The notes beneath the pieces are model-generated. The model did not search any database, was not told where the DNA came from, and was given only the letters and a program-made list of their open reading frames with translations. This document shows positions 3,771-21,771 of a stretch of DNA of 32,000 bases, in pieces; positions within the stretch are counted from its first letter, which is position 1; the number at the start of each line of letters is the position of its first letter. Origin of the DNA: Methylorubrum extorquens (GTDB taxonomy: Bacteria; Pseudomonadota; Alphaproteobacteria; Rhizobiales; Beijerinckiaceae); assembly GCA_900234795.1 (NCBI GenBank), contig LT962688.1:4050001-4082000 (forward strand), in the 5' to 3' direction. The translations under genes were made by a program, and so were the position numbers.

Positions 3771-5992
3771 TCAAGTGTGGAATGTCGGCGGTTCGGGCAG
3801 CGGCGCGATCGTGAAGCGCAGCAAGTGCTCGCCATCGAGGACGACGGTGGTCTCGTAGGCGTCGTTATGGTCGAGGTCGGCCGAGACGACCGTGCGGTCC
3901 CGGCCTTCGGAACGATCGAACCGGCACTGGATCCCGGTCGGTGCATCGCTTTCGCCCCGGAGCGCCTCCGCGAGCGGGCGCCCGGCCGCGGTCTCCTCCT
4001 TGAACAGGGCGTAGCGGACCAGATCGATGTAATCGCCGACGGAGAAGTCCGTGATCTGCACGGTGCGGGTGCCATCGCGCGGCTCGGCCGGAGCGGCGAA
4101 TGCGTACACGTCGTCGCCGCCGCCGCCGGTGAGCACGAGATCCCGGCCGCCCACCACGAAGCGGTCGTCGCCCGATCCCGCGATGATCGCCTCGACCGAG
4201 GTGATCCGGTCGAGGCCGAGCTCCTGAGCGGACACGGTCTCGTTCCTCAGGTCCACCACCAGATCGACCGTGGCCGCCGACAGGTCGAGCGTGTCCCGCC
4301 CCCGCGCCGCCGTCGACCGTGTCCTCCGCGCTGTCGAGGGCGAGGATGATCACGTCGTCGCCCGCCTCCCCCGAAACGAGGTCACGCCCGGCCCCGTCCG
4401 AGAGGATGTCCGCACCCTCGCCGCCCTGCAGCCGATCGTCACCCGCATCCCCGACGAGCACGTCGGCACCGGTGCCGCCGGACAGGTCGTCGGCGCCGGC
4501 CGCGCCGTAGAGGCTATCGTTGCCCTCGCCGCCAAGGAGGAGATCGTCGCCGTCGCCCCCATCCAGGATGTCGCGCCCCCTCGCCGCCATCGAGCAGGTC
4601 GTCGCCCGCCTCGCCGAACAGAAGGTCGTCGCCCGCCTCCCCGAACAAGCGGTCGTGACCCGCCCCGCCCGAGACCCGATCCGCGCCCGCCCCGGCGAAC
4701 ACGACGTCGTCGCCCGGCCCGGCCAGGACCGTGTCGGCGCCGTCGCCCGCGATCACGTGGTCGCTGCCGCTGCCGGCATCGACGAGGTCGTCGCCACCGC
4801 GGGCGTCGACATTGTCGTCTCCCGCACCGGCCGCGATGTCGTCCGCGCAGGGTGTGCCGAGGATGAGGTCGTCCCCGTCCGTGCCGCCGATCAAAGCCCG
4901 TTCGAGGACGGTCAGATGAGCCGTACGGGCGACCGAGAACTCGCCGTCCGTCACCGCGTAGGTGACCGTGACCGGACCGGGCGCGTCGGCGTCGAACACC
5001 CAGCCCGAGCCGTCCGCCGTCACGGTGCCGGAGGAGACTCGGACGTCGCGCACGCTGAGTGCGTCTCCGTCCGGATCGCTGGCGCCGCGCAGGAGATCGC
5101 TCAGGGCGATGGTGAGGAGTGCGCAGCCCGCGACATCCCCGAGCTGGACCGGGCCGTTCACCACGGGCGAGCGGTTGCGTTGCCCCGCCGGTCCGTCGTC
5201 CCGGCCGCGCGGCGGCGTCGCCGGATCGACGGGACGCGGATCGCCGCCCGGCGTGGAGTCGGGAGGGATCCGGACGCCGCCGTCCGACGGCCCCGGACCC
5301 TGTGGGTTCGATCCGCCTTGCCCTGTCGAGCCTTGCCCAGTCGAGCTTTGCTCGCTCGAGCCTTGCCCGACCGAGCCTTGATCCGGCCTGTCGGCCTTCT
5401 CCTCTCCCAGCGGTCGGGGGGCCGGCTGTGCCTCGTCGCCGGGCTCCTGCGCATCCGCTTCCGGGTGGAATGCGTCCCGTGGCCGGCCGCCGCCGCTCGG
5501 CTGCCCGCCTCCGCGCCCGCCCGATCCGGCTGCGAGGGAGCCGCCGTTGTCGTTGATCGGCTGGGGGATGACCGGAGAGGCCTTGAAGTCGCCGAGGTCC
5601 GGATGCGCGTCGGGCCTTGCGAAGCGCAGCCCGCGCGCGAGCAGTTCGTGCCCATCGTCGAACAGGGACATGCCGGATTGCAGAACCGGGGATGGCGGTT
5701 CGGCCAGTGGCTTCGGTGCCTCGGCGGCCTTTGCAGGGGTGGGCGCGGCGAGCTCCTCGGAATGGACGAGGCGCAGGGCGTCGGCGCGTGCCGCCACGAT
5801 CTCCGGGTCCACTTCCTCTGCCAGGGTCGCGCGGGGCAGAAGCAGGGATTTGAGGTAGGCGGCCACGGACGCGACCGCCACCGCGGCATAGTAGGGGACG
5901 CCGGATCGCCGGTCTGCGCTGCGCGAGACGTAACGCTCGGCACCCTCGGGCGCGTCCCGCCCGGGCTTCGTGCCCTTGATCTCGATCGTCAT
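3771..5992 (-). pseudogene. Membrane-anchored cadherin-like / RTX Ca-binding protein (~739 aa if repaired), interrupted by two +1 frameshifts at G5 runs
   Basis: Three track ORFs are consecutive pieces of one protein: 4514..5992, 3865..4590 and 3771..4259. RTX nonapeptides run straight across both junctions. Removing one G at 4576..4580 gives ...[16 protein letters not shown]..., and removing one G at 4299..4303 gives ...[18 protein letters not shown].... The N-terminus has a TM helix (VPYYAAVAVASVAAYLKSLLL). This is followed by a Pro/Ala linker, GQGSx pentapeptides, a cadherin-like module (NRSPVVNGPVQL...DPDGDALSV...TVTYAVTDGEF), RTX repeats and a C-terminal tail. ATG 5992 overlaps the ABC gene stop (ATGA). 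Confidence 0.75.
5311..5385 (-). repeat. About five imperfect 15-bp tandem units encoding G-Q-G-S-x pentapeptides (in-frame, inside the RTX/cadherin gene)
   Basis: The plus strand reads ...ccttgccctgtcgagccttgcccagtcgagctttgctcgctcgagccttgcccgaccgagccttgatcc.... The minus-strand translation is DQGSVGQGSSEQSSTGQGSTGQGGS. Confidence 0.6.
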
Positions 5993-7755
5993 GCGGGCAC
6001 CCGCTCCGGCATGGAGCGCTCCCTGTTGTCCTGGGCGCTGTCGGGCTTGGCCGCACCGTCGCGGGCGGCCTTGCCGAGGATCGCCTCCTTCGGGCCGAAT
6101 GCCGTGAGCTTGCCGTCCTGGATCACGGCGATCAGATCCACGGCCGCCAGCACGCTCGGGCGGTGGGCGATCACGATCGCGAGGCCGCCGCGGGCACGCA
6201 CGCCCTGGATCGCCGCGGCGAGCGCAGCCTCGCCCTCGGCATCAAGATTCGCGTTCGGCTCGTCGAGGACGACGAGGAAGGGATTGCCGTAGAGCGCGCG
6301 GGCGAGGGCGATCCGCTGCCGCTGCCCGCCCGAGAGCGCCGTCCCGAGCGGTCCGAGTTCGGTCTTGTAGCCGTCGGGCATGCGCAGGATCATCTCGTGC
6401 ACGCCCGCCGCCTGCGCGGCCGCCACGACCAGCGCCGGATCGCTGTCCTCGGCCAGGCGCGAGATGTTCTCCTCGACCGTCGCGTCGAGGAGGCAGACCT
6501 CCTGAGGCAGGTAGCCGATCATCCCTCCCAGGCTCGCCTCGTCCCATTGCGGCAGGTCGGCCTCGTCGAGCCGCACGCTGCCGCGCAGCAGCGGCCAGAT
6601 GCCGGTCAGCGCGCGGCCGAGGGTGGTCTTGCCGCCACCGCTCGGTCCGATGACGCCGAGCGCCTGCCCGGCCTTGAGCTCGAACCCCACATCCGAGAGG
6701 AGCACGCGACCCGAGCCGGGGGCCGCGACCGTGATGTGGCCGACCCTGAGCGACCGGTGCGCCGGCGGCAGCGTCATCGGCGGCTCGGCGGCGGCCAGGG
6801 CGATCACGGTCTCCTTCAAGCGCCGGAAGGCGGTCCGCGCGGCCAGGATGACCTTCCAGTTGCCGATCGCTTGGTCGATGGGCGCCATGGCGCGGGCGGA
6901 GGTGATCGAGGCTGCGATGATCGCCCCGGCGGAGAGTTCGCCGCCGATGACGAGGTAGGCGCCGAGCCCGAGCACGGCCGATTGCAGGATCATGCGCAGG
7001 ACGCGCGCGATCGCCCCGAACGTGCCGCTGATGTCGGTGGTGCGGGTCTGCAGGTCGAGGTGTTCGTCGTTGGCGCGGCGGTAGCGGTCCACGGCCCGGT
7101 CGGCGAAGCCCATCGCCTTGAGCACGTCGGCGCTGCGCGCGTTCGAGTCCGCGATGGCGTTGCGGGCCACCACGGCCTGCTGCGTGGCGCCGGTCCAGCG
7201 CCGGGTCAGGAGTTCGGCGAGGATGGTCAGCAGCGCGAGGACGACCGCCCCCGCGACGGTGAGCGCGCCGAGATAGGGGTGCAGCATGTAGACGAAGACG
7301 AGGAAGACCGGCACCCACGGCAGGTCGAACAGGGCGACGAGACCGGGGCTCCCGAGGAAGCCCCGCACCGTGTCGACGTCGCGGCCGCGCTCCATCGCCT
7401 CCGCGGTCGAGAAGCCGAAGCGCGGCATGTCGATCCCGACCCGCTGCGCCAGCGGAGCGACCCGGCGGTCGAACTGCGCCCCGAGGCGAACCAGGATCTG
7501 CGAGCGGAGAACGTCGAACAGGCCCTGCGCCAGGTAGAGTCCGACGGCGAGGATCGACAGCCCGACGAGCGTCGGCAGGCTCCCGCTCGGCAGGGCGCGG
7601 TCGTAGACCTGCAGCATGTAGAACGAGCCGGTCAACGCCAGGATGTTGATGATGCCGGACATCCCGAACAGGAAGACGAAGGGCCCCCGAACGCTTTGGG
7701 TGAGCTGCTCGGCGCATCGCTGCTGAGCGAGCTTTTTCTGATCTCTGGAACGCAT
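5989..7755 (-). CDS. Type I secretion system permease/ATPase (PrtD/AprD/HasD type, no N-terminal C39 peptidase domain)
   Basis: The 588-aa ORF begins directly with the TMD (FLFGMSGIINILALTGSFYMLQVYDRALPSGS, typical of the PrtD family). It has Walker A GPSGGGKTT, the ABC signature LSGGQRQRIALARAL and Walker B FLVVLDEPNANLD. The SD GGGGGAGAG precedes ATG 7755. Confidence 0.92.
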   Translation of the reverse strand: MRSRDQKKLAQQRCAEQLTQSVRGPFVFLFGMSGIINILALTGSFYMLQVYDRALPSGSLPTLVGLSILAVGLYLAQGLFDVLRSQILVRLGAQFDRRVAPLAQRVGIDMPRFGFSTAEAMERGRDVDTVRGFLGSPGLVALFDLPWVPVFLVFVYMLHPYLGALTVAGAVVLALLTILAELLTRRWTGATQQAVVARNAIADSNARSADVLKAMGFADRAVDRYRRANDEHLDLQTRTTDISGTFGAIARVLRMILQSAVLGLGAYLVIGGELSAGAIIAASITSARAMAPIDQAIGNWKVILAARTAFRRLKETVIALAAAEPPMTLPPAHRSLRVGHITVAAPGSGRVLLSDVGFELKAGQALGVIGPSGGGKTTLGRALTGIWPLLRGSVRLDEADLPQWDEASLGGMIGYLPQEVCLLDATVEENISRLAEDSDPALVVAAAQAAGVHEMILRMPDGYKTELGPLGTALSGGQRQRIALARALYGNPFLVVLDEPNANLDAEGEAALAAAIQGVRARGGLAIVIAHRPSVLAAVDLIAVIQDGKLTAFGPKEAILGKAARDGAAKPDSAQDNRERSMPERVPA

Positions 7756-7784
7756 GGCAGGCTCTCCCCCTCGTCAGGCAAGTG

Positions 7785-7811
7785 GGTCGGGCCCCTGGCC
7801 GGGGCCCGACC
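7785..7811 (-). promoter_or_regulatory. Perfect 11-bp GC-rich stem-loop between the giant substrate gene and the ABC exporter gene
   Basis: The sequence is ggtcgggcccc-tggcc-ggggcccgacc, 4 nt downstream of the substrate stop (7816..7818). No U-tract follows on the minus strand, so it is not a canonical intrinsic terminator. Confidence 0.6.
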
Positions 7812-7815: not shown

Positions 7816-10800
7816 TCAGAGCGTGAAGTCGGCGGCCGTGGGCGCCGTATTGCCCTTGATGGCGAGCTTGAATTCCGGGGAGGCATCGCCGGCCGTGTTC
7901 CCCTGGACGACGACGTAGTCTCCGTCGTCGCGCGTCTCCTGCGTCACCAGGAGTTGTCCGACCCCCGTGAAGGCCGCGCCGGTCGCGAGCGTGAAGGCTT
8001 GGTTCCCGGCCTGCCCGGCATCGGCGTCGATCGCGCTGAGGTCGATCTTGTCGCCCGGCCGGAAGCCCTCGATGGTGTCGCCGTTCGCCGCGCCGGCCGA
8101 GCCGAAGCGGTAGGTGTCGCTGCCCTCGCCGCCATCCATCACGTTCGCGGCGTCGCTCGCCGTGATGTCGTCGTTGCCGGACCCCGTGACGACGTTCTCG
8201 ACGCCCCAGAGCACGTCGCGACCCGACTGGGTGCTGGTCGCACTGCCGCGCCCAGCCAGACCCGTCCCGAGGTTGACCGCGATGTTGGCGGTGATGGCCG
8301 ACATGTCGAGCGTGTCGCTCCCCAGCCCGCCCCCCATCTCGTCGCCCCAGTAGGTGTCGTCGCCGTCACCGGTCTCGGCCACGAACAGGTCGTCGCCCTC
8401 GCCGCCGATGACCGTGTCCCGGCCGGCGCCGGCGGTCACGAGGTCGTTGCCGGCTCCGGCGAGGATGCGGTCGTTGCCGCCATCGCCGTACACCATGTCG
8501 GCGCCGCCGCCGCTGAGGACATCGTCGTCGCCGTCCCCGGCGAACACCACGTCCCGGCCCTCGCCGGCATCGACGAAGTCGTTGCCCGCGCCGGCCCGGA
8601 CCACGTCGGCACCGCCGCCGGCGAGGATGTTGTCGTCGCCGTCCAGGCCGAGGATGGTATCCGCCCCCGCCGTGCCGTTGAGGACGTCTCCGTTCGCGCC
8701 GCCGGCGATCACGCCGGGCACGTGGTTGACGGGCGGAGTGGTGCCGGGACCGGTCCCGGGCCCGTCCTCGTCGCCGTCACCCCCGCCGACCGGGTCGGTC
8801 GTCCCGTCTCCGTCTCCTTGCCCGTCGTCCTCGTCGTCGCCGGGATCGCCCCCGCCGCCGACAGGGTCGGTCACGCCGTCGTCATCGTCCTCGTCCCCAC
8901 CGGCATCGCCGCCACCGCCGACCGGATCGGTCGGGCCGTCCTCGTCCTCGTCGGGATCGCCACCCACGGGATCGGTGTCGCCGTCGTCGTCATCATCGCC
9001 GGGCTCCGTCCCCGGTCCGTCCTCGTCGGACAGCTCGAAGATGTGTTCCGGCAGGACCGTCAGGCCGGTGTTCCGGGCAACGATGTCCGAGAAGCCCTGG
9101 CCGTCGACGACGTTCTCGTAGAAGTCGAAGTTGTCGAAGCGCTCGAGGTAGTAGAAGCGGTCGCCGTCCTGCAGTCGGTCGAACTGCTCGTGCAGCACGA
9201 CCCAGAAGGTCTGGCCGACGACGCCGTTGTTGATGTGCTTCTCGGCAAGCCCGCCGACCCAGAGATCGAGCCGGTCGATCCCCTTCACGACACCGGTCCC
9301 ATCGGCCTGCATGGCGATGGCGATGTCGCCGTTGATCACCCGGAAGGCTGCGATGTCCGCGGCGGCGAGGACGAGGTCCGGGTAGGCTTGCCGGAACTGC
9401 GCGATCACCGCGTCGCTGAGGCCGTTGCGCGCCTGGAAGTCCTCCCAGGAGGCGTAGGGCGAGAGGTCGCCGCCGGCGAAGCCCACCGCGTCCCGGATAT
9501 AGGGATTGGTGGAGGCCGCCAGATCGGCGCGGACCTGGTTGAGGGTGCCGAGGCCCACGTCCCAGCCGCGGGCCACGTTGAAGGCGAACAGGTCGGCCCG
9601 AATGCGCACGAGGTCGTTGCGAACCGCATCGACGATGTTGAAGTCGACGTCCTCGGCCGCCTGCTCGATGGTGCCGCCGATTATGCCGCCGACGCCGTAC
9701 TGAGCGTAGCCGGGCTGCGGCACGTAGCCGGGAGGCAGCGGCGCGGTGAACACCGAGGGATCGTTGCTCGGGTTGAGGAAGGCGTCGAACAGGCTGACCG
9801 GAATGGTCTCGCCGTCGGCGCCCTTCACGTTCAGCGTCTGCCCGATCAGGGAGTGGCCGAACCGGAACACCGCCGCGGCGAACTCGTGGCTGATCGCGAC
9901 ATCCACGCTCGGATCATAGGTCTCGAACCCGTGCGTGCCGTCCGAGCGCAGACCGCCGATCAGCGTCTCCAAGTACTCGTCGAAGACGACACGCTGATAC
10001 TCCGCCTCGTTGACCATCTTGGCGGCCTGGAACACCTGCTCGGGCGTGCCCTCGAAGCCGGATTCGAGGAGCTTCTCGACGTGGTAGTTGTGGTTGCGCG
10101 CCCAGACCGTGTGGATCGAGGTGAGGGCGAAGTTCTCGTTGGCCCGCCCGTCGCCGGCCACGAAGTGGTCGAGGACGCTGATGAAGGGGTTGGTGTCGAG
10201 CAGCAGCGGATGGCCCGAGCCCATGAAGTTTCCGACGAGCTTCGTGAGCACCTGCGGGTCGAAGGCGCCGGTCTCCGTGTTGAACAGGGTGCCGGTCACC
10301 CCCTCGGACAGGGCGAAGTTCGTGTAATAGGTCCGGAAGCTGATCGGCCCGTCCGGTCCGGCGAAGATGGTGTCGGCCTGCCAGTGATGGTTGACCAACT
10401 CGCGCAGCGTCGGCAGCAGGTTGAAGGCGGGGTTGGACGGGTCCGGTGCCCCCGCCAGAAGCCGCATACCGACGCCCTGCGCCCCGTCGCTCTCTCTCAG
10501 GAACTGGCCGACCAGCGCGTTGGAGCCATAGGCTTGGTTCTGGTCGATGTAGGGGGAGGTCTGGTTCTTGTGCTGCGGCACGCCGTTCGCATCGACGGCC
10601 ATGACGGTGCCGCGGGTGAGGTCGGCCGGGTTGTTGGAGCCTGGTGCCCCGCCGCCGGGCGCACCGATCACGATCGAGCCGTTGCCACCCTTGGGCAGGA
10701 AGTCGAGCCCGTGGTCGATGTACTGGCCCATCGCCATGAAGAAGATGTTGGCGTCGTTTCCGGCCTTGGGCAGGCCGGCCTCCTGCGTGCCGAGGATGTT

Positions 10801-13800
10801 GCTGATGGTGCGCGCGTCGAGGCCGTCGAAGATCGGGTTGATGGCCCTGTTGCCGTTGGCGTCGGCCTCGCCGTAGCGGGCCTGGGTCAGGCGGATGAAG
10901 GCTTGGTCGGCGCTGCCCCAGGTCGGGTGGTCGAGGTTGTTGCCGTGGCCGCTGAGCTCGCGGTAGCCCGTCGGCACGTCGTCGTCGCCCGCATTGTCAG
11001 GGCGCTGGCCGCGCACCAGCGCCTCCAGCCCGTCGATGTCGGCTGCCGTGTAGGCGAAGGCGCCGGTGACGCCCTCGCCGTGCCCTCCGTCGGCGCCTGC
11101 ATCCACCGTGATCCGCGGCATGCCGCCCGCGGCCGAGAAGGTGATGGTATGCGACCCGTTGGAGAGGGTCGTCATGCCGTTCGCGCCTGCGGCGGCGACG
11201 TAGTCCGCCCGGTTCGAGCCGGCCGGCAGTTCGATCACGTCCTGCGGCCGCAGAGTGCCGACGATGGTGTCGTGCCCCCCGTTCGAGCGGAAGACGATGC
11301 GGTGGGCCGAGGTGAGGGCGGCCATGTCCACGGTGTCGTCGCCCGATGAGCCGTCGATGGTGATGGTGTTGAAGTTGAGGCTGGTGCCGGTGAAGCTGCC
11401 GATCACCTGAATCGTGTCGCCGCCATTGGCACCGCCGTTCTGGCCCCCGGGCGACGTCACCTGGAGCGTGTTGACGCGGATCTCCTCGACGTTGTCGAGT
11501 TCGGCGACAATCGCGGCGGCACCCGTGCCGTTGCGGGTGATCACGATCTCGGTCGAAGCGGCGAGCTGCGCCTCCGTATTGCCCGCGACCTGGAGCCAGG
11601 CTGACCGGCTGTAGATGCGGAAGGTCTCAGGCCCCGCGGTGCCGTTCAACTGGTAGGTATCGGTGCCGGCTCCGCCATCGACGCGGTCGCGCCCGTCGGT
11701 GCTGACTTGAATGAACGTATCGTTGCCGCCGCGGCCGTTCAGGATGTCGTTGCCGGCGCCACCGTTCATCGTGTCGTTCGGCTGGATCCCGAAGAGGGCG
11801 GTGTCGGCGCCGTTTGCGATGTCGTCACCGGCCGTCCCGTTGAAGGTCCTGTTGAGCGCCGTGCCTGTGAAGGTGTCGCCGACGACGCCGGTGGGCGCCG
11901 AGAACAGCTCTTCCGGATTTCCCGCGCCGTCGGTGAAGCTCACCCGCAGCCTCAGCACGTCCCCGACCTGGGCCTGGCCGGGCGTGTAGTTGAGCGTGCC
12001 GGCGGCGTTGCCGGCGATATCCGTCCAGGTCTGGCCGTTATCGCCCGATTGCTGCCAGCGCAGCGAGAAGGTCCCAAGACCGTCGGCGTCCTGGATCGCG
12101 GCGACCAGCGCGCCGAGCGGCTGGCCCTCCGTCGGCGAAACGAGCCCGTTCGTCGGCGTTGGGTCCGTGACGACGGGCGCCCCGGTCGCGACGGCGTTCA
12201 CGGCGACCTGCTCGACGTTCTTGAGCTCGGCGATGACGATCCCGTTGCGCACGACCACGGTCTGCGTGTCGTCACGGAACGACAGGTTCGCGAACTGCGC
12301 CCGGGCCTGGGCCAGCGTGAGCTGCTGGACGGGACCGGTCCCGTTCATGATCCGGAAGCTGTCCGTGCCGGCGCCGCCATCGACGAAGTCGCGGCCGTCG
12401 CCGGTCCGCCACAGGACGTTGTCGTTGCCGGCTCCCGCGAAGACGAGGTCGTTGCCCGCGCCGCCGCTGAGCGTATTGTTGCCGGCCGTCCCGACCACGA
12501 TGTCGACGGCCGCCGTGCCGTTGGCGACCAGCGTGTAGGGCGTGAGGTCGTTGCCCATCTGGATCTGCTCGATCGTGGTGAGCGTATCGACGCCGTCGCC
12601 CTCCGCTCCGAGGTTGTCGCTGACGACGACCTCGCCCTGCGCGTTCCGCTCGAAGCTGTAGGCCGCGATCGGTCCCGAGTAGATGGCGGTGTCGGTGCCG
12701 GCGCCGCCGATCAGACGGTCGTTGCCGTGCCCGCCGGAGAGTTGGTCGTCGTCGTTGCCGCCGTCGAGCGTGTTGTTGCCGGTCCGGCCGATCAGGGTGT
12801 CGGCGCCATCGTTGCCGAGGAGGGTGTCGTCGCCCGCGCCGCCATCGACCCGGTCGTCGCCGCTGCCGGCGTAGATGGCATCGTTGCCGACATCGCCCTC
12901 GATGTCGTCGTCGCCGTCGCGCCCCAGGATGACGTTCGGGCTCGTGGAACCCGCGATGTCATCGGCGGCGGCGGTTCCGACGAAGGCGGACTGGACGGAG
13001 GCCGTCTGCTGCAGGCCGGTATTGCCGGCGACCGTGCTGGTCCAGTTCGCGACCACCCGGATCTCGACGCCGGTCGCTCCGGTCGGCGTGAAGAAGGTGC
13101 CCCCGTTCGTGACCTGGCCGTCCGCGCCGGTCACGTTGCGCCACTGCCCGTTGTCGGCCAGCACCTGCCATTGCAGGGTCACGGGCCGGGTGGTCGCGTT
13201 CACACGGTTCACCAGCGTCGCGACGAGTGTCGAGGAATCGTCGCCGTCCGCGTCGAACGGTCTGATGGTGAGGCTGTCGAAGGGCTGGTTGAGAACCAGC
13301 GCGACGTCCGCCGTGCCGTCCGCGAAACGCAGCTTCTCGATGTTGCGCAGCGTATCCGTGCCGTCATCGACGGCGGGATTGGTCAGCGTGGTGTGGGTGA
13401 CGGTGAGCGTGCCGTTCGCCGCGCGGGTGATCGTGTAGTTCGCCCGGATGTCGTTGAACACGGCGGTGTCCACGTCCGCCGCCGTCGCTCCGGTGGTGAT
13501 CACCTCGCGGACGATTGCGAGCTGGGTCGGGCTGATCACCCGGTCGATCATCAGCTCGAAGAGCGACTTTCCGGCCCAGCCGCGCGCCTGATTGGCGGCG
13601 CTGTCGTCGAAGACGTGCTTCAGGCTGTCGGCCGTCGCCATCTCCTGGCCAGCATCCGCAGGATTGCGGATGCTGATGCGCACGTTCAGCCAGCGGTCGC
13701 CGTCGAGGATGTCGTTGCCACCGTTGCCCTGGAGCGTATCGTTGCCCGCGCCGCCCAGCAGGATGTTGCCGGCCTCGAAGAACTGCTGCCCGGAAGCAAG

Positions 13801-16800
13801 CGACACGATCTGGTCGAGGCCCGCGATCCGAGCGATGCCGGCCGCGTCGAGCCCGTCGTTGAAGAACACGCCCTCGTTTGCCGCCGTGATCGGCGCGCCG
13901 GCAGGCGCCTCGGCATCCGCGTTGGCGGCCGCGGTCCGGTCGTCGCCGATGAGCGTGTCGTTCAGCCGCCAGCCGGAGAGACCCTCCGTCTTGTCGAAGC
14001 GGTTGCGCAGGATGTCGGCTTCTTCGGTGGTGAAGATCGGGATGCGCATGTCGGCATTGGCCGCGATCTGGTTGCCCTTGTAGATCGCCCAATCGAAGCC
14101 GAACATGCCCTCGTTGCGCATCACGCTCTCGCCCTGGACCATGATGTCGTCGCCGGACTCGCCGTCGAAATCATGCTCGTCGCCCCCGGCAAACATGACG
14201 TCGTGGCCCTTGATGGCCGAGTTGAAGAACAGTTCCGAGTTGTCGCCGGCGGTGGTGTCGAAGCCGCCGCCACCCTCCATCCAGTCGTCGCCCTCGTTGC
14301 CCATCAGAAGGTCGGCGTCGTCGCCGCCGATCACGAAGTCATCGCCCTCGCCGGCAAAGACTTCGGTCGCATCGACGCCGACGAAGATCGCGTCCTTGCC
14401 GCGCCCGCCCATCAGGATGTCGATGCCGTTCGAGTTGGCGATGACGTCGTTGCCGTCCTCGCCCTTGAGGAAGTCGCCGGTATCGCCGGAATCGGTGATG
14501 ATATCGTCGCCCGCTCCGCCGTTCACGAGATCGACGCCCGCGCCCGCCTCGATCCGGTCGTCGCCTGCATCCCCCCAGATTCCGTCATCGCCGAAATCGG
14601 TGATGATGGTGTCGTTGCCGTCGGTGCCACCCACCAGCACATGCTCGCCGCCGGTGAAGCGGAGGTAGTGCCCGGTGGCGAAGGGCTGATTGAGCGCGGC
14701 CGGATCGACGACGGTTGCGTCGAGGTCGGCGGCCGGGCTGGCGATGGACTGCCCGGTGCGCAGGACGTTGCCGGCGCCATCGCGCAGGAACGGGTCGGCG
14801 GCCGGGTCGTAGCCGGGCGTCTGCGCTGGGGTCAGATCGGACCGGTAGGCCGGCGCCGTCCGCACGAGTTCGATGTCGTCCACGAGGATCTGCGCATCGC
14901 CGCTGCCGGTGTTGCGGATCTCCAGGCGAAGCTGAAGGCCCGCAAGCGCCGACGGGACAACACCCGTTGCGAGGGTGAAGGTGCCCCACTGCCCGTCGGC
15001 CGGCTCCGTCAGGGTCAGCGTCCCGAGGGTCACCGGGTTTGCCCCGCCGACCGCCACGAGGCGCGCCTCGGCGCCCGGCCAGGTGAAATCGGTCCGGTCC
15101 CCGACCTTGAAGCTGTAGGTGTAGCCGACGCCGGCCTGGAGGGTCGTCCCGCCCTCCTGCGAGAGCGTGGCGCCGCCGCGCAGCCACACGACGTTGGCGC
15201 CGTCGCGGCCGGCGGGGTCGACGACCGCGTCGGCCGGCGCGAAGAGGCCGCCGACGCCCCCGGCGATGGTCCAGCCGGCCGGGTTCGTCGTGGTGTAGTT
15301 GCCGTTGCCGTCGAGGATCACGCCCTCCTGGCCGGCGACCAGCGCCAAGCCCTCGAAGCTGCCGTTGGCGACCGCCACCGCCTCGGGGACGGACGAGCCG
15401 GGAGCGAAGCCGAGGCGCCCATCGGCACCGATCCGGAGCACCGGTGCGTCCAGCATGTCCGCCTGGGTCAGCGCGATGCCGAGCTTGGCTGCATTCGCCT
15501 TGAGATCGGCCCAGGTGACGGGGTTGCCGGCGCCGCCGACCCCCTCCTCGCTGCCGTCCACGAGCGCGCCCGTGGGGCTCCCGTCCGCACCGTAGCGCCG
15601 GACCAAGGCGTTAATCGAGGCGTGGTAGCCGCTCGCGCCCTCGTCGGCCGCGGTGCCGGGATCGTCGCGCACGACCTTGCCGAGGCCCATCGCCTCCAGC
15701 ACGGGGTCGTTTCCGGTCGGGTCGCGGCCGGGGGCGGCGCCGTTCTGATCGAGCTGGTTGGCGGCGTTCACCTCCAGCTCGAAGTCGTAATCGGCGAAGG
15801 CATCGACGCCGATATGGCGGGGCACGATGTCGTCCGCCGTGCCGCGGATGCCGTCAGGCCCCGGCAGCGACAGGCTCGAATTGGCGAGCATGATCTTCGA
15901 GAAGGAGTTCTGCTCCAACTCGTTGAGGAAGTTCTGCCCCTGGACGCGGCTGAGATAGTAGAACCTGTCGGCATCCTGCAGGTTCTCCATCTGGGCTTCG
16001 AAGATGGCGTTGAAGGTCGAGCCCAGCATGCCGCCGAACGGCATCTGCTTCTCGGCCAGGCCGCCGATCCAGAGATCGACCGCGCCGAAGCCCGTTTCCC
16101 GCCCGGCCCAGCTCCCGCGCGAATTGAGGTAGTCGAGGCGGTCCGTCGGTGCGCCCTCGCCGCCGAAGACCAGGGCCATGGCCGCGTCGCGCTTGGCCGC
16201 GAGCGTCGTCGCGGCGACAACGGTGCCGTGGGTGCCGTAAGCGGCGATGAAGTTCACCACCGAGAGCGGGTTCTTCAGGTTGGCCGCCATCTCCACCCAG
16301 CTCGTGTAGGGGGTGAGGAAGGTCGAGCCTGTCGCGGCGTAGAGCTGGGCTCGTGCCTCGTTGAGCGTCGGCGTGCCCGTATCGCGGCCGCGGGCGATGT
16401 TGATGGCGGCGAGATCGAGCGGCAGGCCGAGCAGATTGTTGCGCAGGGCACCGACGACGAACTCGTCGATTTCGCTGCCGCGTTCGATGGTCATGCCGCG
16501 CATGATCGCGGCCGCGCTCTCGTCGTGGGACAGGCCGCCGTCGTTGTCGAAGGCCAACGGATTGAGGAAGGCGTCGATCAGGCCGAGGTCGGCATCGAGC
16601 GCCTGCCCGTCCGGCCCGAGCCGCGGCATGTTCTCGGTCAGCATCGAGTGGCCGAAGCGGTAGACCGTATTGGCGAACTCGGCGAAGATCGACGGGTCGA
16701 TCTCGGTCACCGGATTGAACACGAAAGGATCGACCAGCGGTTGGATCTTGCGGGCGAATTCCTCGAAGACGAGGTGCTGGTACTGCATCTCGGTGGCGAA

Positions 16801-18573
16801 GCGCGCCGCCTGGAACAGCCGCTCACCGTCCCAGGACAGCGTATTGGCGTAGGCGAGCTGACCCAGCGCCGTCATCTGCGCGAAGTTGCCCGGCAGGGCC
16901 GCGATGTCGGTCGCCAGCCAATCGTTGATGAAGGCGAGATCGCCCGACTGCAGGATCGTGAGCTTATGGGCGTCGATCTGCCGGTTGTGCTCGGAATGGA
17001 AAATGTGGTGGACCGCGGTGAGGCCGATATTCTCGTTGCCGCGCCCGTCGCCGGTGACGAAGTGCCGGTCGAGAAGCTCGTTGTCGTATTCGAGATTGCG
17101 GCCGGTCTGCGGGTTCATCTGAACCGCATTGCCCGTGAGCGCGTCGGCATCGGGCCGGAGCACGCCGTTCACGGCGACCGGCACCGCGTTGTGGGCGATG
17201 TCGTCGAGGAACGCGTTGAAGGTGCGGGCCGCTGCGACCGTCTCACCGGCCTCAATGACGTTCTGCGTACCGTTGGGACCCACCAGAACGGTGCCGACGG
17301 GAAGCTGGATCGCCGAGAGCTTCAGCGGCTCGGCAAGGCTGCCGCTGGCATAGACGGCCAGCCCCCCAGGCCCCACCCCGACCATCACCTGCGGCAAGCC
17401 GTTGGCACTGCGGACGAACTCGCCGTAGGCATCCACCAGCAATTGCGGGACGGCCGAGACGTCGGCGTCCGTCAGTTCGATGCCGAGGATCGTCCGCGCC
17501 TGGAACTTGACGTCCGCCCAGGTGGCAAGGCCTCCGTCCGCGCCGCCGAGCAGGCGCCCGGTCGCGACGGGCCGCCCGTCCACAAGTGCGTATTCGCGCA
17601 GGAACACTTGGTGGGAGGCGTTCGAGGTGTAGGTCTGGTTCTGGTCGACGAAGGGTGTCGTGACATTGCGCTGCGAACCCTCAACCTGCGCGGCGCGCGT
17701 CAGCGTCATGAAGCGCAGATGCGGCGCGAGGTCGTCGGCGGTGCCGGCGAGGCCGTCCTGTCCGAGCACGAGCGGGTCGTCGGCGGCGAGCGGGACGTAG
17801 ACGGTGCCGTTCCCGCCCTTGGAGATCAGATCGAGGCCGTGGTCGAAGAACTGGCCGAAGAAGGTCATCCAGGCGTTGAACGGCTTCGACAGCCCCTCGT
17901 CGGGCGAGACGTTGAGGACGTCGATGGAGCCGTTGGTGACGGTGACGCCGGTCTGCTCCAGCAGCGCATCGAGGTTCGATTGCAGGACCGCGTGATCGCC
18001 GGCCGGGTTCGCGGCCTGAGCGGCCTTCAGGGCCTCGTGCGCTGCCGTGATGGCGCGCTGATCGGCGATGACGTTGTCCGAACCGGCGATCCTGAGCGCC
18101 GCGGCGATGGCGGCCGGGTTGTCGAGCGTGGCATCGACCACGAGGTTCGAGATGATCCGCGGGTCGGCATCGGCGACCGAACCGGGCAGCCCGTAATTGG
18201 TGTTCGTGATGATCGGAGCGCCCGGTCCGAGCGCCATCGTGTCCCCGTCCGCGTCGTTGAGGTAGGTCGGCTCGAAGAGTTGCGGCATCGGCTGGCCGGA
18301 CGAGCCCCAGGTCTCGCGGCCGGGCACGAGGTTGTTGTAGGTGCCGTCGACCGTGCGCAGCCCGTAGGGCACGTGGGGATCCGCAATCGCCTTCGGCGCC
18401 GCGGCATCGCCGAGCCAGTTGCCGGTGGCGTCGTAGAGCCCGCGATCCGTGAGAAGCGTGCCGGCGGCGTCGAGGCGCAGTTCCGTGAGCTTGATGCCGC
18501 TCGCATGCGCTTCGGCGATCTTGATCTGCTTCAGGATGAAGGTCAGATCTTGAAGATTGAGCTTAACGGCCAT
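7816..18573 (-). CDS. Giant secreted dual heme-peroxidase / RTX protein (3585 aa; 'long peroxicin'-type, T1SS substrate)
   Basis: The track ORF is 7816..18672. I place the start at ATG 18573..18571 (MAVKLNLQDLTFILKQIKIAEAH) because a perfect GGAGG sits 5 nt upstream. The protein has two An_peroxidase-type regions, at least six RTX nonapeptide blocks (GGxGxDxUx), and a C-terminal serralysin-like tail (GDKIDLSAIDADAGQAGNQAFTL...GDASPEFKLAIKGNTAPTAADFTL). Confidence 0.92.
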   Translation of the reverse strand: MAVKLNLQDLTFILKQIKIAEAHASGIKLTELRLDAAGTLLTDRGLYDATGNWLGDAAAPKAIADPHVPYGLRTVDGTYNNLVPGRETWGSSGQPMPQLFEPTYLNDADGDTMALGPGAPIITNTNYGLPGSVADADPRIISNLVVDATLDNPAAIAAALRIAGSDNVIADQRAITAAHEALKAAQAANPAGDHAVLQSNLDALLEQTGVTVTNGSIDVLNVSPDEGLSKPFNAWMTFFGQFFDHGLDLISKGGNGTVYVPLAADDPLVLGQDGLAGTADDLAPHLRFMTLTRAAQVEGSQRNVTTPFVDQNQTYTSNASHQVFLREYALVDGRPVATGRLLGGADGGLATWADVKFQARTILGIELTDADVSAVPQLLVDAYGEFVRSANGLPQVMVGVGPGGLAVYASGSLAEPLKLSAIQLPVGTVLVGPNGTQNVIEAGETVAAARTFNAFLDDIAHNAVPVAVNGVLRPDADALTGNAVQMNPQTGRNLEYDNELLDRHFVTGDGRGNENIGLTAVHHIFHSEHNRQIDAHKLTILQSGDLAFINDWLATDIAALPGNFAQMTALGQLAYANTLSWDGERLFQAARFATEMQYQHLVFEEFARKIQPLVDPFVFNPVTEIDPSIFAEFANTVYRFGHSMLTENMPRLGPDGQALDADLGLIDAFLNPLAFDNDGGLSHDESAAAIMRGMTIERGSEIDEFVVGALRNNLLGLPLDLAAINIARGRDTGTPTLNEARAQLYAATGSTFLTPYTSWVEMAANLKNPLSVVNFIAAYGTHGTVVAATTLAAKRDAAMALVFGGEGAPTDRLDYLNSRGSWAGRETGFGAVDLWIGGLAEKQMPFGGMLGSTFNAIFEAQMENLQDADRFYYLSRVQGQNFLNELEQNSFSKIMLANSSLSLPGPDGIRGTADDIVPRHIGVDAFADYDFELEVNAANQLDQNGAAPGRDPTGNDPVLEAMGLGKVVRDDPGTAADEGASGYHASINALVRRYGADGSPTGALVDGSEEGVGGAGNPVTWADLKANAAKLGIALTQADMLDAPVLRIGADGRLGFAPGSSVPEAVAVANGSFEGLALVAGQEGVILDGNGNYTTTNPAGWTIAGGVGGLFAPADAVVDPAGRDGANVVWLRGGATLSQEGGTTLQAGVGYTYSFKVGDRTDFTWPGAEARLVAVGGANPVTLGTLTLTEPADGQWGTFTLATGVVPSALAGLQLRLEIRNTGSGDAQILVDDIELVRTAPAYRSDLTPAQTPGYDPAADPFLRDGAGNVLRTGQSIASPAADLDATVVDPAALNQPFATGHYLRFTGGEHVLVGGTDGNDTIITDFGDDGIWGDAGDDRIEAGAGVDLVNGGAGDDIITDSGDTGDFLKGEDGNDVIANSNGIDILMGGRGKDAIFVGVDATEVFAGEGDDFVIGGDDADLLMGNEGDDWMEGGGGFDTTAGDNSELFFNSAIKGHDVMFAGGDEHDFDGESGDDIMVQGESVMRNEGMFGFDWAIYKGNQIAANADMRIPIFTTEEADILRNRFDKTEGLSGWRLNDTLIGDDRTAAANADAEAPAGAPITAANEGVFFNDGLDAAGIARIAGLDQIVSLASGQQFFEAGNILLGGAGNDTLQGNGGNDILDGDRWLNVRISIRNPADAGQEMATADSLKHVFDDSAANQARGWAGKSLFELMIDRVISPTQLAIVREVITTGATAADVDTAVFNDIRANYTITRAANGTLTVTHTTLTNPAVDDGTDTLRNIEKLRFADGTADVALVLNQPFDSLTIRPFDADGDDSSTLVATLVNRVNATTRPVTLQWQVLADNGQWRNVTGADGQVTNGGTFFTPTGATGVEIRVVANWTSTVAGNTGLQQTASVQSAFVGTAAADDIAGSTSPNVILGRDGDDDIEGDVGNDAIYAGSGDDRVDGGAGDDTLLGNDGADTLIGRTGNNTLDGGNDDDQLSGGHGNDRLIGGAGTDTAIYSGPIAAYSFERNAQGEVVVSDNLGAEGDGVDTLTTIEQIQMGNDLTPYTLVANGTAAVDIVVGTAGNNTLSGGAGNDLVFAGAGNDNVLWRTGDGRDFVDGGAGTDSFRIMNGTGPVQQLTLAQARAQFANLSFRDDTQTVVVRNGIVIAELKNVEQVAVNAVATGAPVVTDPTPTNGLVSPTEGQPLGALVAAIQDADGLGTFSLRWQQSGDNGQTWTDIAGNAAGTLNYTPGQAQVGDVLRLRVSFTDGAGNPEELFSAPTGVVGDTFTGTALNRTFNGTAGDDIANGADTALFGIQPNDTMNGGAGNDILNGRGGNDTFIQVSTDGRDRVDGGAGTDTYQLNGTAGPETFRIYSRSAWLQVAGNTEAQLAASTEIVITRNGTGAAAIVAELDNVEEIRVNTLQVTSPGGQNGGANGGDTIQVIGSFTGTSLNFNTITIDGSSGDDTVDMAALTSAHRIVFRSNGGHDTIVGTLRPQDVIELPAGSNRADYVAAAGANGMTTLSNGSHTITFSAAGGMPRITVDAGADGGHGEGVTGAFAYTAADIDGLEALVRGQRPDNAGDDDVPTGYRELSGHGNNLDHPTWGSADQAFIRLTQARYGEADANGNRAINPIFDGLDARTISNILGTQEAGLPKAGNDANIFFMAMGQYIDHGLDFLPKGGNGSIVIGAPGGGAPGSNNPADLTRGTVMAVDANGVPQHKNQTSPYIDQNQAYGSNALVGQFLRESDGAQGVGMRLLAGAPDPSNPAFNLLPTLRELVNHHWQADTIFAGPDGPISFRTYYTNFALSEGVTGTLFNTETGAFDPQVLTKLVGNFMGSGHPLLLDTNPFISVLDHFVAGDGRANENFALTSIHTVWARNHNYHVEKLLESGFEGTPEQVFQAAKMVNEAEYQRVVFDEYLETLIGGLRSDGTHGFETYDPSVDVAISHEFAAAVFRFGHSLIGQTLNVKGADGETIPVSLFDAFLNPSNDPSVFTAPLPPGYVPQPGYAQYGVGGIIGGTIEQAAEDVDFNIVDAVRNDLVRIRADLFAFNVARGWDVGLGTLNQVRADLAASTNPYIRDAVGFAGGDLSPYASWEDFQARNGLSDAVIAQFRQAYPDLVLAAADIAAFRVINGDIAIAMQADGTGVVKGIDRLDLWVGGLAEKHINNGVVGQTFWVVLHEQFDRLQDGDRFYYLERFDNFDFYENVVDGQGFSDIVARNTGLTVLPEHIFELSDEDGPGTEPGDDDDDGDTDPVGGDPDEDEDGPTDPVGGGGDAGGDEDDDDGVTDPVGGGGDPGDDEDDGQGDGDGTTDPVGGGDGDEDGPGTGPGTTPPVNHVPGVIAGGANGDVLNGTAGADTILGLDGDDNILAGGGADVVRAGAGNDFVDAGEGRDVVFAGDGDDDVLSGGGADMVYGDGGNDRILAGAGNDLVTAGAGRDTVIGGEGDDLFVAETGDGDDTYWGDEMGGGLGSDTLDMSAITANIAVNLGTGLAGRGSATSTQSGRDVLWGVENVVTGSGNDDITASDAANVMDGGEGSDTYRFGSAGAANGDTIEGFRPGDKIDLSAIDADAGQAGNQAFTLATGAAFTGVGQLLVTQETRDDGDYVVVQGNTAGDASPEFKLAIKGNTAPTAADFTL
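7819..8735 (-). other. C-terminal RTX block plus non-cleaved T1SS secretion-signal region
   Basis: The region reads GGANGDVLNGTAGADTILGLDGDDNILAGGGADVVRAGAGNDFVDAGEGRDVVFAGDGDDDVLSGGGADMVYGDGGNDRILAGAGNDLVTAGAGRDTVIGGEGDD, then DTLDMSAITANIAVNL and the tail described for the CDS. Confidence 0.8.
8760..9030 (-). repeat. Polyacidic linker with four TDPVGG(G) units at ~60-66-nt spacing
   Basis: The translation is SDEDGPGTEPGDDDDDGDTDPVGGDPDEDEDGPTDPVGGGGDAGGDEDDDDGVTDPVGGGGDPGDDEDDGQGDGDGTTDPVGGGDGDEDGPGTGPG. The DNA repeats (g)accgg(g/a)tcggt four times. Confidence 0.8.
9030..10985 (-). other. Peroxidase head 2 (animal heme peroxidase family domain); approximate bounds
   Basis: The distal motif is FFMAMGQYIDHGLDF (His codon 10711..10713). 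Other motifs are YIDQNQAYGS, HFVAGDGRANENFALTSIHTVWARNHNYH (about 10085..10160), FRFGHSLI, ARGWDVG and DLWVGGLAEK...DRFYYLER. Confidence 0.8.
11650..14640 (-). repeat. Central region with five dispersed RTX nonapeptide blocks and two WQ..G..W beta-sandwich modules (in-frame protein repeats)
   Basis: RTX blocks lie at about 14230..14640 (GGTDGNDTIITDFGDDGIWGDAGDDRIEAGAGVDLVNGGAGDD...), 13690..13770, 12690..12960, 12360..12500 and 11650..11850. The beta-sandwich modules lie at about 12990..13270 (TLQWQVLADNGQWRNVTGADG) and 11880..12130 (SLRWQQSGDNGQTWTDIAGNAAG). Confidence 0.75.
14860..15375 (-). other. Jelly-roll / carbohydrate-binding-module-like beta-sandwich (approximate bounds)
   Basis: The region reads ANGSFEGLALV...NPAGWTIAGG...VWLRGGATLSQ...GVGYTYSFKVG...GQWGTFTLA...LRLEIRN...ILVDDIELVR. 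The NGxFE start, the GW and the closing DDIEL pattern resemble CBM4_9/DUF642-type lectin folds. This is by eye only. Confidence 0.4.
15880..18400 (-). other. Peroxidase head 1 (animal heme peroxidase family domain); approximate bounds
   Basis: The distal motif is WMTFFGQFFDHGLDL (His codon 17839..17841). Other motifs are FVDQNQTYTS, HFVTGDGRGNENIGLTAVHHIFHSEHNR (about 16985..17065), FRFGHSML, ARGRDTG and DLWIGGLAEK...DRFYYLSR. Confidence 0.8.
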
Positions 18574-18694
18574 GGCCACCTCCCAAATACGGATACAGGC
18601 GAGCATCAGCCGGCCTGGTGATGGACGGAGCGCCCCTTGTCGCCGGGGAGGTCTCCAAACTGGCCACAGCATTCCATCAGCCGCGCAAATTGGC

Positions 18695-20383: not shown

Positions 20384-21682
20384 TCAGCAGTCGAGCGTGG
20401 TGTCGCGCTCCCACTGGGTGAGGTGGCGGCAGTAATCGTCCCATTCCTGGCGCTTGAGCTTGAGGTAGCTCGGCACGAAGGCGCCGAGCGCCTCGTTGAG
20501 GACGGGGCTCGCTTCGAGGGCGCGCAGCGCATCGAGCAGGTTGAGCGGCAGGCGCTTGACGCCCTCCACCGTGTGACCGTCGGTGTACATGTTGATGTCG
20601 AGGCGCTGGCCCGGATCGCGCCGCTGCCGGATGCCGTCGAGGCCGGCGGCGAGGAGGCCCGCCTGGAGCAGGTAGGGGTTGGCCGCCCCATCCGCGAGGC
20701 GGAACTCGAAGCGCCCGCCGTCCGGAATGCGGATCATGTGGGTGCGGTTGTTGCCCGTGTAGGTCACGGTGTTGGGCGCCCAGGTCGCGCCGGAGGTGGT
20801 GCGCGGCGCATTGATGCGCTTGTAGGAGTTCACGCACGGGTTGGTCAGCGCGGCCAGCGCATCCGCCGAGTGAATCAGGCCGCCGATGAAGTGATAGCCG
20901 ATCTGCGACAGGCCGATCTCGTCCGAGCGGTCGGCGAACACGTTCTGGCCGTCGCGCCAGAGCGAGACGTGGGCGTGGCAGCCCGAGCCCGTGAGATCCA
21001 TGAAGGGCTTGGGCATGAAGGTCGCGCGGAAGCCGTGCTTCTCGGCGATCGAGCGGGTCATGTACTTGAAGAAGGCGTGCCGGTCGGCGGTGATCAGCGC
21101 GTCGTCGTAGTCCCAGTTCATCTCGAACTGGCCGTTCGCGTCCTCATGGTCGTTCTGGTAGGGCTTCCAGCCGAGGCTGAGCATCGCGTCGCAGATCTCG
21201 GTGATTACTTCGTAGCGGCGCATCAGGGCGGATTGGTCGTAGCAGGGCTTGGTCTGCTTGTCGGCGGTGTCGGCAGGCTCCGAGCCGCAGGGCGTGATCA
21301 GGAAGAACTCGCACTCGACGCCGCTCTTCATCTGCAGCCCTTCCTCGGCCGCTTCCTTGATGAGGCGCTTGAGGATGTTGCGCGGGCCCTGCTCCACCGC
21401 CTTGCCGTTCATCACGAGGTCGGCGGGCAGCCAGCCGACTTCCGGCTTCCAGGGGAGTTGGATCAGCCCGTCCGCGTCGGGCATGGCCAGAAGGTCGGCG
21501 TCGGCGGGGCTCATGTCGAGCCAGGTGGCAAAGCCGGCAAAGCCCGCGCCGTTGCGGCAGGTGCTGCCGATGGCGGCGGCCGGCACCAGCTTGGCCCGCT
21601 GGGTGCCGAACAGATCGGTGTAGGACACGAGGAAATACTTGATGCCGCGCTCCCGGGCGGCGGTCTCAAGATCATGCGCCAT
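20384..21682 (-). CDS. gmaS: Glutamine-synthetase-family enzyme; by context gamma-glutamylmethylamide synthetase
   Basis: The protein has a GS-type catalytic domain (FMPKPF...GSGCHAHVSLW; NSYKRI; RIPDGGRFEFRLADGAANPYL). I prefer the start at ATG 21682 (MAHDLETAARERGIKYFLVSYTDLFG), which is preceded by GGAAGGA. It sits directly downstream of mgsABC-like genes. Confidence 0.8.
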   Translation of the reverse strand: MAHDLETAARERGIKYFLVSYTDLFGTQRAKLVPAAAIGSTCRNGAGFAGFATWLDMSPADADLLAMPDADGLIQLPWKPEVGWLPADLVMNGKAVEQGPRNILKRLIKEAAEEGLQMKSGVECEFFLITPCGSEPADTADKQTKPCYDQSALMRRYEVITEICDAMLSLGWKPYQNDHEDANGQFEMNWDYDDALITADRHAFFKYMTRSIAEKHGFRATFMPKPFMDLTGSGCHAHVSLWRDGQNVFADRSDEIGLSQIGYHFIGGLIHSADALAALTNPCVNSYKRINAPRTTSGATWAPNTVTYTGNNRTHMIRIPDGGRFEFRLADGAANPYLLQAGLLAAGLDGIRQRRDPGQRLDINMYTDGHTVEGVKRLPLNLLDALRALEASPVLNEALGAFVPSYLKLKRQEWDDYCRHLTQWERDTTLDC

Positions 21683-21731
21683 TGCAAGGATCCTTCCGGC
21701 TTGGTGGTGCGGCCCCATCGCCACAAAAGAA

Positions 21732-21767
21732 CAAGGGCCGCCCTCGAAGCGTCAGGAGCGGCCCTTG
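21732..21767 (-). terminator. Intrinsic-terminator-like hairpin between mgsC and gmaS
   Basis: A 10-bp stem caagggccgc/gcggcccttg encloses a 16-nt loop. On the minus strand it is followed immediately by TTCTTTTGT. It lies 5 nt after the mgsC stop (21772..21774). Confidence 0.5.
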
Positions 21768-21771
21768 CAGG

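Follow-up and report, generated by a model that had tools for sequence, protein, structure and literature searches.

What is the role of a bacterial protein of 3585 amino acids (aa) that carries two animal-type haem peroxidase domains? This question is raised by a 32,000-nucleotide (nt) stretch of the Methylorubrum extorquens genome (contig LT962688.1, positions 4,050,001 to 4,082,000; the window, meaning this whole stretch), in which one gene on the minus strand encodes two such domains, the heads, together with arrays of RTX calcium-binding repeats. The reading that we favour, with a rough probability of 0.75, is that this protein corresponds, as an orthologue in Methylorubrum, to MopA, the 'long peroxicin' known from Aurantimonas manganoxydans (AmMopA), and that it acts as a type I-secreted, Mn(II)-oxidising peroxidase. 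The gene and its two heads are as follows.

7816..18573 (stop codon included), minus strand: mopA-like gene for the 3585-aa two-domain haem peroxidase/RTX protein, delimited by its open reading frame (ORF), Shine-Dalgarno sequence and shared N-terminus.
15859..18456, minus strand: peroxidase head 1 (aa 40-905), identified by its An_peroxidase match, by alignments with lactoperoxidase (LPO) and LspPOX and by 57% identity to AmMopA head 1; key residues Q241, D244, H245 (17839..17841) and G246, R511, E514 and N515, proximal H642 (16648..16650) and N725.
9019..10998, minus strand: peroxidase head 2 (aa 2526-3185), identified by its An_peroxidase match, by alignments with the light chain of myeloperoxidase (MPO), LPO, LspPOX and DdPoxA and by 69% identity to AmMopA head 2; key residues Q2617, D2620, H2621 (10711..10713) and G2622, R2810, E2813 and N2814, proximal H2907 (9853..9855) and N2999.

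A preliminary description, made by a model from the DNA letters alone, had predicted two independent matches to the Pfam family An_peroxidase (PF03098, curated cut-off 25 bits). Scored as separate pieces, the heads gave exactly this, with 193.9 bits (E = 5.7e-57) for the piece containing head 1 (aa 1-1000) and 248.7 bits (E = 1.4e-73) for that containing head 2 (aa 2460-3200). All the motifs quoted in that description were also recovered at the residues and codons given there: the distal motifs FFGQFFDHGLD (aa 238-248, His codon 17839..17841) and MGQYIDHGLD (aa 2615-2624, His codon 10711..10713), the Arg/Glu stretches beginning with GDGRGNEN in head 1 (aa 508-531) and GDGRANEN in head 2 (aa 2807-2831), the motifs FVDQNQTY (aa 308) and YIDQNQAYG (aa 2675), and DRFYYL at aa 869 and aa 3138.

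The residues named in these motifs occupy catalytic positions. In head 2, Q2617, D2620 and H2621 align with Q91, D94 and H95 of MPO (light chain, 1cxp_A numbering) and the GDGRANEN motif aligns with residues 252-259 of LPO, R2810 corresponding to R255, E2813 to E258 and N2814 to LPO Q259/MPO M243. The His of the FRFGHS motif (H2907) aligns with the proximal H351 of LPO, and N2999 with the equivalent Asn of the structure 8s6c, the partner of the proximal His. Residues R511, E514, N515, H642 and N725 of head 1 stand in the same register against LPO, with R511/E514 on R255/E258, H642 on H351 and N725 on the Asn partner (N437 in our own numbering). A phmmer run against the Protein Data Bank (PDB) with aa 60-330 of head 1 alone found nothing; for the distal region of head 1, the link to solved structures therefore runs solely via the family profile, by which this region matches the GQFlDHdLDL motif of 8s6c (18.5 bits), and via head 2, which it matches directly (E = 3e-12). 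The solved enzymes used here, i.e., MPO, LPO, DdPoxA (6erc) and the LspPOX-type protein (8s6c, a 528-aa bacterial-like chain deposited as 'Lactoperoxidase', which we take to be LspPOX), are all An_peroxidase proteins whose Q-x-x-D-H and R-x-x-E motifs, proximal His and Asn are in register with both heads. Unlike the two-headed protein of the window, they are single-domain enzymes of ~500-600 aa, relative to which both heads present an insertion between the distal His and the Arg (~120 aa in head 1 and ~45 aa in head 2).

The Asp and Glu residues to which haem is ester-linked in mammalian enzymes had been described as kept in both heads, and D244/E514 and D2620/E2813 are indeed in register with MPO D94 and LPO E258. 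The replacement of the sulfonium Met of MPO (Met243) by Asn was likewise confirmed (N515 and N2814). The 'Arg/Glu/proximal-His' stretches of the preliminary description stand for Arg and Glu but not for the proximal His, which is absent from the GDGR..EHNR stretch in both heads and is located ~95-130 residues downstream, in YRFGHS (H642) and FRFGHS (H2907). Judged from this register and from conservation, both heads are probably catalytically competent.

Conservation was assessed on the 120 best matches of the protein. Of these, 110 have two motif sets (distal, RxxE and proximal), no more and no fewer, and the motifs are almost invariant. In alignments A1 and A2, neither head shows any variation in the catalytic Gln, His, Arg, Glu and proximal His; the distal Asp and the Asn that pairs with the proximal His do not vary in head 1 and reach 90% conservation or more in head 2. 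The heads share only ~32% identity, which indicates that the duplication is old; a recent tandem duplication, already discounted in the preliminary description, was rejected on this basis. Four other homologues (P0061, P0086, P0094 and P0113; 3842-4335 aa; those with a name come from Rhizobium and Bosea) contain three full motif sets and correspond to three-headed versions of this family.

The named proteins among these matches all belong to Alphaproteobacteria, including Methylobacterium, Rhizobium, Bosea, Rhodopseudomonas, Xanthobacter, Aurantimonas, Roseovarius and Hyphomicrobium, the top one being a 'peroxidase family protein' of Methylorubrum populi (95% identity). The exact protein of the window belongs to a 112-member cluster at 90% identity from the genus Methylorubrum (M. 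extorquens, M. populi, M. rhodesianum, M. aminovorans, M. thiocyanatum and others).

The link with manganese comes from one of these homologues, the 3297-aa 'hemolysin-type calcium-binding peroxidase' of A. manganoxydans SI85-9A1 (P0039), which matches Q1YMS2, a two-domain protein of the same length and strain (Table 3 of PMC3396595) treated as the Aurantimonas Mn(II)-oxidising homologue by Santamaria-Hernando et al. (2012; PMC3396595). The protein of the window is collinear with P0039 from end to end (aa 1-2135 against 1-2147, 50% identity; aa 2230-3583 against 1996-3293, 55% identity). Each head corresponds to its own counterpart (57% for head 1 and 69% for head 2, against only ~32% for the cross-matches), and no other part of the protein is as conserved as head 2 (69% versus ~50% overall). 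The two proteins have the same order of Pfam domains (An_peroxidase, HpiC1-like, RTX, An_peroxidase, RTX), an acidic linker and an RTX tail, and they share the motifs GQFFDHGLD/GDGRGNEN/YRFGHS in head 1 and GQY[FI]DHGLD/GDGRANEN/[YF]R[VF]GHS in head 2. They differ in length, the Methylorubrum protein exceeding AmMopA by 288 aa and containing an additional repeat module between aa ~2135 and 2230, and in their number of PERCAL calcium motifs (2+0 versus 3+0 in AmMopA; PMC3396595). Because of this collinearity, of the identical domain order and of the operon described below, the protein is by sequence the orthologue of AmMopA. Of the two, it is the Aurantimonas protein for which Mn(II) oxidation has been measured, and orthology suggests Mn(II) as a substrate in Methylorubrum.

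The comparison with AmMopA also bears on the start of the gene. The enclosing ORF (7816..18672, minus strand) has 3618 open codons, of which 3585 remain from the ATG at 18573. We retained this ATG, in agreement with the preliminary description, because a strong Shine-Dalgarno sequence (GGGAGGTG) lies 5' of it, because the resulting product, starting with MAVKLNLQDLTFILKQIKIAEAHA, has nearly the same N-terminus as AmMopA (shared pattern MAVKLN..DL.FIL.QIKIAEAHA), and because the exact 3585-aa protein occurs in public assemblies. The longer start was rejected, as it has no Shine-Dalgarno sequence and an unconserved N-terminus, and as the 3618-aa version is absent from the protein collection. The predicted mass of the protein is ~370 kDa. 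A scan for promoter and terminator consensus sequences upstream of the gene found nothing.

How would such a protein leave the cell? The rest of its architecture comprises calcium-binding repeats and a putative export module:

17731..17763, minus strand: PERCAL calcium motif 1 (GQDGLAGTADD, aa 271), inserted in head 1; regular expression match.
15829..15861, minus strand: PERCAL calcium motif 2 (GPDGIRGTADD, aa 905), at the end of head 1; regular expression match.
14866..15381, minus strand: HpiC1-like beta-sandwich module (aa 1065-1236), also present in AmMopA; Pfam PF22825, E = 4e-14 / 4.8e-16.
11236..14628, minus strand: central region of six RTX nonapeptide blocks (aa 1316-1441, 1607-1632, 1866-1972, 2019-2082, 2245-2316 and 2381-2446) with intervening modules without family; HemolysinCabind matches and nonapeptide clustering.
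8704..9018, minus strand: Gly/Asp-rich acidic linker with TDPVGG repeats (aa 3186-3290); composition.
7819..8703, minus strand: C-terminal RTX blocks (aa 3291-3431 and 3463-3510) and uncleaved type I secretion tail; HemolysinCabind, 64.2 bits.

With the expression G-x-D-G-x-x-[GN]-[TN]-x-D-D (motif defined in PMC3396595), exactly two PERCAL motifs were found, both located within head 1 or at its edge, i.e., a 2+0 pattern. The module that had been called a jelly-roll corresponds to the HpiC1-like match. At least six RTX blocks had been announced, and the nonapeptides group into 8 blocks, with 13 HemolysinCabind stretches in the whole protein; the family profile also matches the RTX blocks of CyaA. 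The polyacidic linker is equally real, with 30 Asp, 6 Glu and 32 Gly in 105 residues. Searching the inter-domain segments against Pfam at E values up to 1, including the two proposed 'WQ..W' beta-sandwich modules and the region 2290-2540, produced no match. The predicted type I secretion tail is borne out by the last ~135 aa (aa 3450-3583), which fall on positions 326-460 of the 462-position serralysin profile NF035945, in its C-terminal part, and by the two RTX blocks just before the tail. The N-terminus (MAVKLNLQDLTFILKQIKIAEAHASG) is not hydrophobic by inspection and carries no signal peptide. C-terminal RTX nonapeptides, an uncleaved tail and the lack of an N-terminal signal peptide are the features of a type I (RTX) substrate.

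The genes located immediately downstream, separated by short or overlapping intergenic distances, point in the same direction:

5989..7755, minus strand: type I secretion ABC transporter of 588 aa, 60 nt downstream of the peroxidase gene; Pfam ABC_membrane and ABC_tran.
3771..5992, minus strand: gene for a cadherin-like/RTX protein, split into three frames in the window; Pfam Cadherin_5, Big_9, HemolysinCabind and Peptidase_M10_C.
2403..3749, minus strand: type I secretion membrane-fusion protein of the HlyD/AprE type, 448 aa; Pfam HlyD_3 and HlyD_D23.

The order peroxidase, ABC transporter, cadherin-like/RTX protein, membrane-fusion protein is common to the window, A. manganoxydans, M. populi and the Logan contigs that encode an identical protein. 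The ABC gene occupies the same position in A. manganoxydans (L001) and M. populi (L003), and the membrane-fusion gene does so in L001, L003 and contig L004. The cadherin-like/RTX protein is probably a second substrate of this type I system. The 60-nt gap between the peroxidase and ABC genes also contains a perfect hairpin rich in GC, GGTCGGGCCCC-GGCCA-GGGGCCCGACC, that lacks a T-run (7783..7811, minus strand). This hairpin could be an attenuator or an RNA-stabilising element setting the ratio of substrate to transporter.

As a MopA orthologue, the protein would be exported unfolded through the adjacent type I system, composed of the ABC transporter, the membrane-fusion protein and an outer-membrane channel presumably encoded elsewhere, with its C-terminal RTX/secretion module as the export signal. 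It would fold outside the cell upon binding of calcium at the RTX blocks and at the two PERCAL motifs. Haem would then be bound in each head by the proximal His-Asn pair, next to the distal set of Gln, His and Arg, and might become esterified through the Asp and Glu residues once it has met peroxide, as happens in LPO-type enzymes. The protein would then most likely carry out the extracellular one-electron oxidation of Mn(II) to Mn(III) and/or that of other peroxidase substrates.

Much of this had been anticipated in the literature. Zamocky et al. (2015; PMC4420034) described the long peroxicins, ORFs of Proteobacteria that reach 3300 aa, as having a duplicated, fused peroxidase domain and recurring PERCAL and hemolysin-type calcium motifs, and called their role unknown. 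The protein of the window, with its 3585 aa, two heads, two PERCAL motifs and 13 HemolysinCabind stretches, belongs to this group (Family 5), and the peroxicin label of the preliminary description was right (PMC4420034, PMC6247904). Santamaria-Hernando et al. (2012; PMC3396595) listed twelve bacterial proteins with two animal peroxidase domains, including those of M. extorquens PA1 (A9W3A5, 3587 aa) and DM4 (C7CGY0, 3618 aa) and Methylobacterium chloromethanicum CM4 (B7KW13, 3587 aa), catalogued from their sequences (Table 3). Like the protein of the window, all three have two domains and PERCAL 2+0. By these table entries, their lengths of 3587 or 3618 aa compare with 3585 aa from the second ATG, or 3618 aa from the first, in the window, and the 90% cluster of the window protein contains M. 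extorquens proteins. The two-head architecture, including that of the M. extorquens orthologues, is thus already known since 2012, and the sequence finding adds nothing beyond what was catalogued in 2009-2015.

The statement of the preliminary description that no physiological role, substrate or product had been established for such fusions, which probably goes back to Zamocky et al. (2015), is contradicted by published work. MopA homologues oxidise Mn(II) (PMC6247904; bioRxiv 10.1101/2022.11.10.515945). Medina et al. (2018; PMC6247904) describe MopA-type proteins as long peroxicins that convert Mn(II) to Mn(III), with domains repeated in A. manganoxydans, Roseobacter AzwK-3b and Pseudomonas putida GB-1, and report that the Aurantimonas enzyme is stimulated by H2O2. 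The recombinant head of Erythrobacter MopA oxidises Mn(II) to Mn(III) and keeps the equivalents of LPO Asp108 and Glu258 but not the MPO Met (PMC6247904), the same pattern as in the preliminary description. Erythrobacter sp. SD-21 MopA (A5PER4, 2138 aa) resembles the protein of the window by its PERCAL-bearing head, similar to head 1, and differs by having one head and one calcium-binding region and by requiring NAD+ and O2, not H2O2. The P. putida protein PehA/PepA (PP_2561; 3619 aa, 373 kDa) is extracellular, both of its domains are peroxidase-active after haem reconstitution (PMC9518985, PMC3396595), and it aids the colonisation of root tips (PMC9518985). MopA of strain GB-1 is genetically implicated in Mn(II) oxidation (PMC5906577). 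The P. putida proteins of KT2440 and GB-1 (3619 and 3618 aa) are both extracellular, of ~370 kDa, with two duplicated animal peroxidase domains.

Several observations weigh against the protein being a type I-secreted, Mn(II)-oxidising MopA. The chemistry of MopA is disputed, being stimulated by H2O2 in Aurantimonas, dependent on NAD+ and O2 but not on H2O2 for the Erythrobacter head, and mediated by superoxide in Roseobacter AzwK-3b (PMC6247904), and P. putida MopA alone yielded little Mn oxide in the dark (PMC5906577). In the literature searched, we found no experimental work on this protein in Methylobacterium or Methylorubrum. The MPO calcium ligand Asp96 is replaced by Gly in both heads and in all 241 motif matches of the 120 homologues, and Ser174 by Asn in our own reading of the FVDQNQTY and YIDQNQAY motifs. 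The distal calcium site of families 1-3 (MPO D96, T168, F170, D172 and S174) is therefore incompletely present in either head, and the active site does not reproduce the mammalian one in full; ancestral families do not fully conserve this motif either (PMC4420034). AlphaFold2 models, computed per head from 24-row alignments (A1 and A2) built from full-length homologues, were poor (mean pLDDT of 55.9 for head 1 and 40.2 for head 2), too low for a check of geometry, and a Foldseek search of the PDB with the low-confidence head 1 model retrieved chance matches only (E >= 3). The residue equivalences given above thus rest on sequence and profile alignments only. Among the ORFs of the window scanned against Pfam, no TolC-like or outer-membrane component was detected. 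Finally, the cadherin-like/RTX neighbour is frameshifted here. Its three ORFs (4514..5992, 3865..4590 and 3771..4259) result from two extra G, at 4580 and 4303 (GGGG -> GGGGG), by reference to contig L004, from which the window shows no other difference over 17.8 kb, and the gene is intact in L003 (724 aa) and L004 (739 aa). These two G correspond either to homopolymer sequencing errors or to a real inactivation of the second type I substrate.

The confident parts of the head 1 model (pLDDT 70-92) are only two lineage-specific insertions, not the catalytic core: a helical hairpin ahead of the distal motif (aa ~150-210, 17941..18126, minus strand) and a beta-rich module between FVDQNQTY and the Arg/Glu stretch (aa ~307-446, 17236..17656, minus strand), both without known family assignment.

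Could the protein serve in the defence against plant peroxide instead? The 90% cluster that contains it includes a protein from Methylobacterium sp. Leaf92. Methylorubrum is a plant-associated genus, and strains named 'Leaf' originate from leaves. A role as an extracellular peroxidase that clears H2O2 of plant origin and thereby assists the colonisation of leaves or roots is a serious, though less likely, alternative, and one compatible with Mn(II) oxidation. Its model would be PehA, a 3619-aa extracellular homologue with two domains whose haem-dependent peroxidase activity boosts root-tip colonisation; yet a null pehA mutant shows no marked colonisation defect (PMC9518985), and the KM of the PepA N-terminal domain for H2O2 is very high (13 mM, cited in PMC6247904). 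PehA shares PERCAL and hemolysin-type calcium motifs with the protein of the window but has PERCAL motifs in both heads (5+5); the architecture and 2+0 pattern of the window protein are much closer to A. manganoxydans MopA (PMC3396595, Table 3). The P. putida protein is also more distant, gammaproteobacterial, and no P. putida protein is present among the 120 best matches.

A second alternative, which we regard as unlikely, concerns the route to Mn(III) rather than the substrate: an 'oscillating' oxidase/peroxidase would produce extracellular superoxide that oxidises Mn(II) indirectly, as proposed for the animal haem peroxidases of Roseobacter AzwK-3b. These enzymes belong to the same MopA-type family (PMC6247904, PMC3396595) and Roseovarius homologues are found among the close two-headed relatives, but the Erythrobacter MopA head was only slightly affected by superoxide dismutase, and H2O2 stimulates the Aurantimonas enzyme (PMC6247904); the sequence itself does not discriminate between the two modes. 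That the protein is chiefly an RTX adhesin or toxin with vestigial heads is highly improbable, even though more than half of it consists of RTX blocks and beta-sandwich-like modules and a cadherin-like RTX protein is encoded in the same operon, and vestigial heads were rejected, since the catalytic residues are invariant or nearly so in both heads, head 2 is better conserved than any other part and homologous heads are enzymatically active (PMC9518985, PMC6247904).

If the protein is a MopA orthologue, why does it keep two heads? The heads are paired, each with its own signature (the PERCAL-bearing GQFFDHGLD/YRFGHS in head 1 and the more conserved GQY[FI]DHGLD in head 2), in 110 of the 120 best homologues despite their low mutual identity, which would fit a division of labour between non-redundant heads within one secreted molecule. 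We consider this idea speculative and rather doubtful, and found no published work separating the roles of the two heads in alphaproteobacterial proteins. If it were true, one head might for example oxidise Mn(II) to Mn(III) while the other supplied or removed H2O2 or superoxide, or handled the Mn(III) product, and the protein would be a redox machine complete in itself, carrying out two steps outside the cell. Two enzyme classes are known to underlie the formation of bacterial manganese oxides, and MopA-type peroxidases, whose mechanism is disputed, are one of them. Methylorubrum, a genetically tractable methylotroph, could be a model for the roles of the heads, for covalent haem and for metal oxidation versus plant-peroxide defence.

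The genes located on either side of the peroxidase and secretion genes were also inspected. Upstream of the peroxidase gene (20384..24916, minus strand; 24913..26043, minus strand; 25932..31415, plus strand) is a cluster resembling the N-methylglutamate pathway of methylamine use. It comprises a glutamine-synthetase-like gene, three glutamate-synthase-like genes (GATase, GXGXG and Glu_synthase), an AraC/DJ-1 regulator and sarcosine-oxidase-like beta, alpha and gamma genes, with a candidate delta ORF between them that has no Pfam match. This cluster is unrelated to the peroxidase finding; in M. populi (L003), a transposase and an integrase are present instead on the same side of the peroxidase gene. 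Beyond the secretion operon are genes for a MetOD1-domain protein (1692..2270, minus strand) and a HisKA_3 histidine kinase (521..1843, minus strand). A GerE-type response regulator comes next in M. populi (L003) and a GerE-type regulator is also encoded near mopA in A. manganoxydans (L001). This two-component system may be a conserved regulator of the locus.

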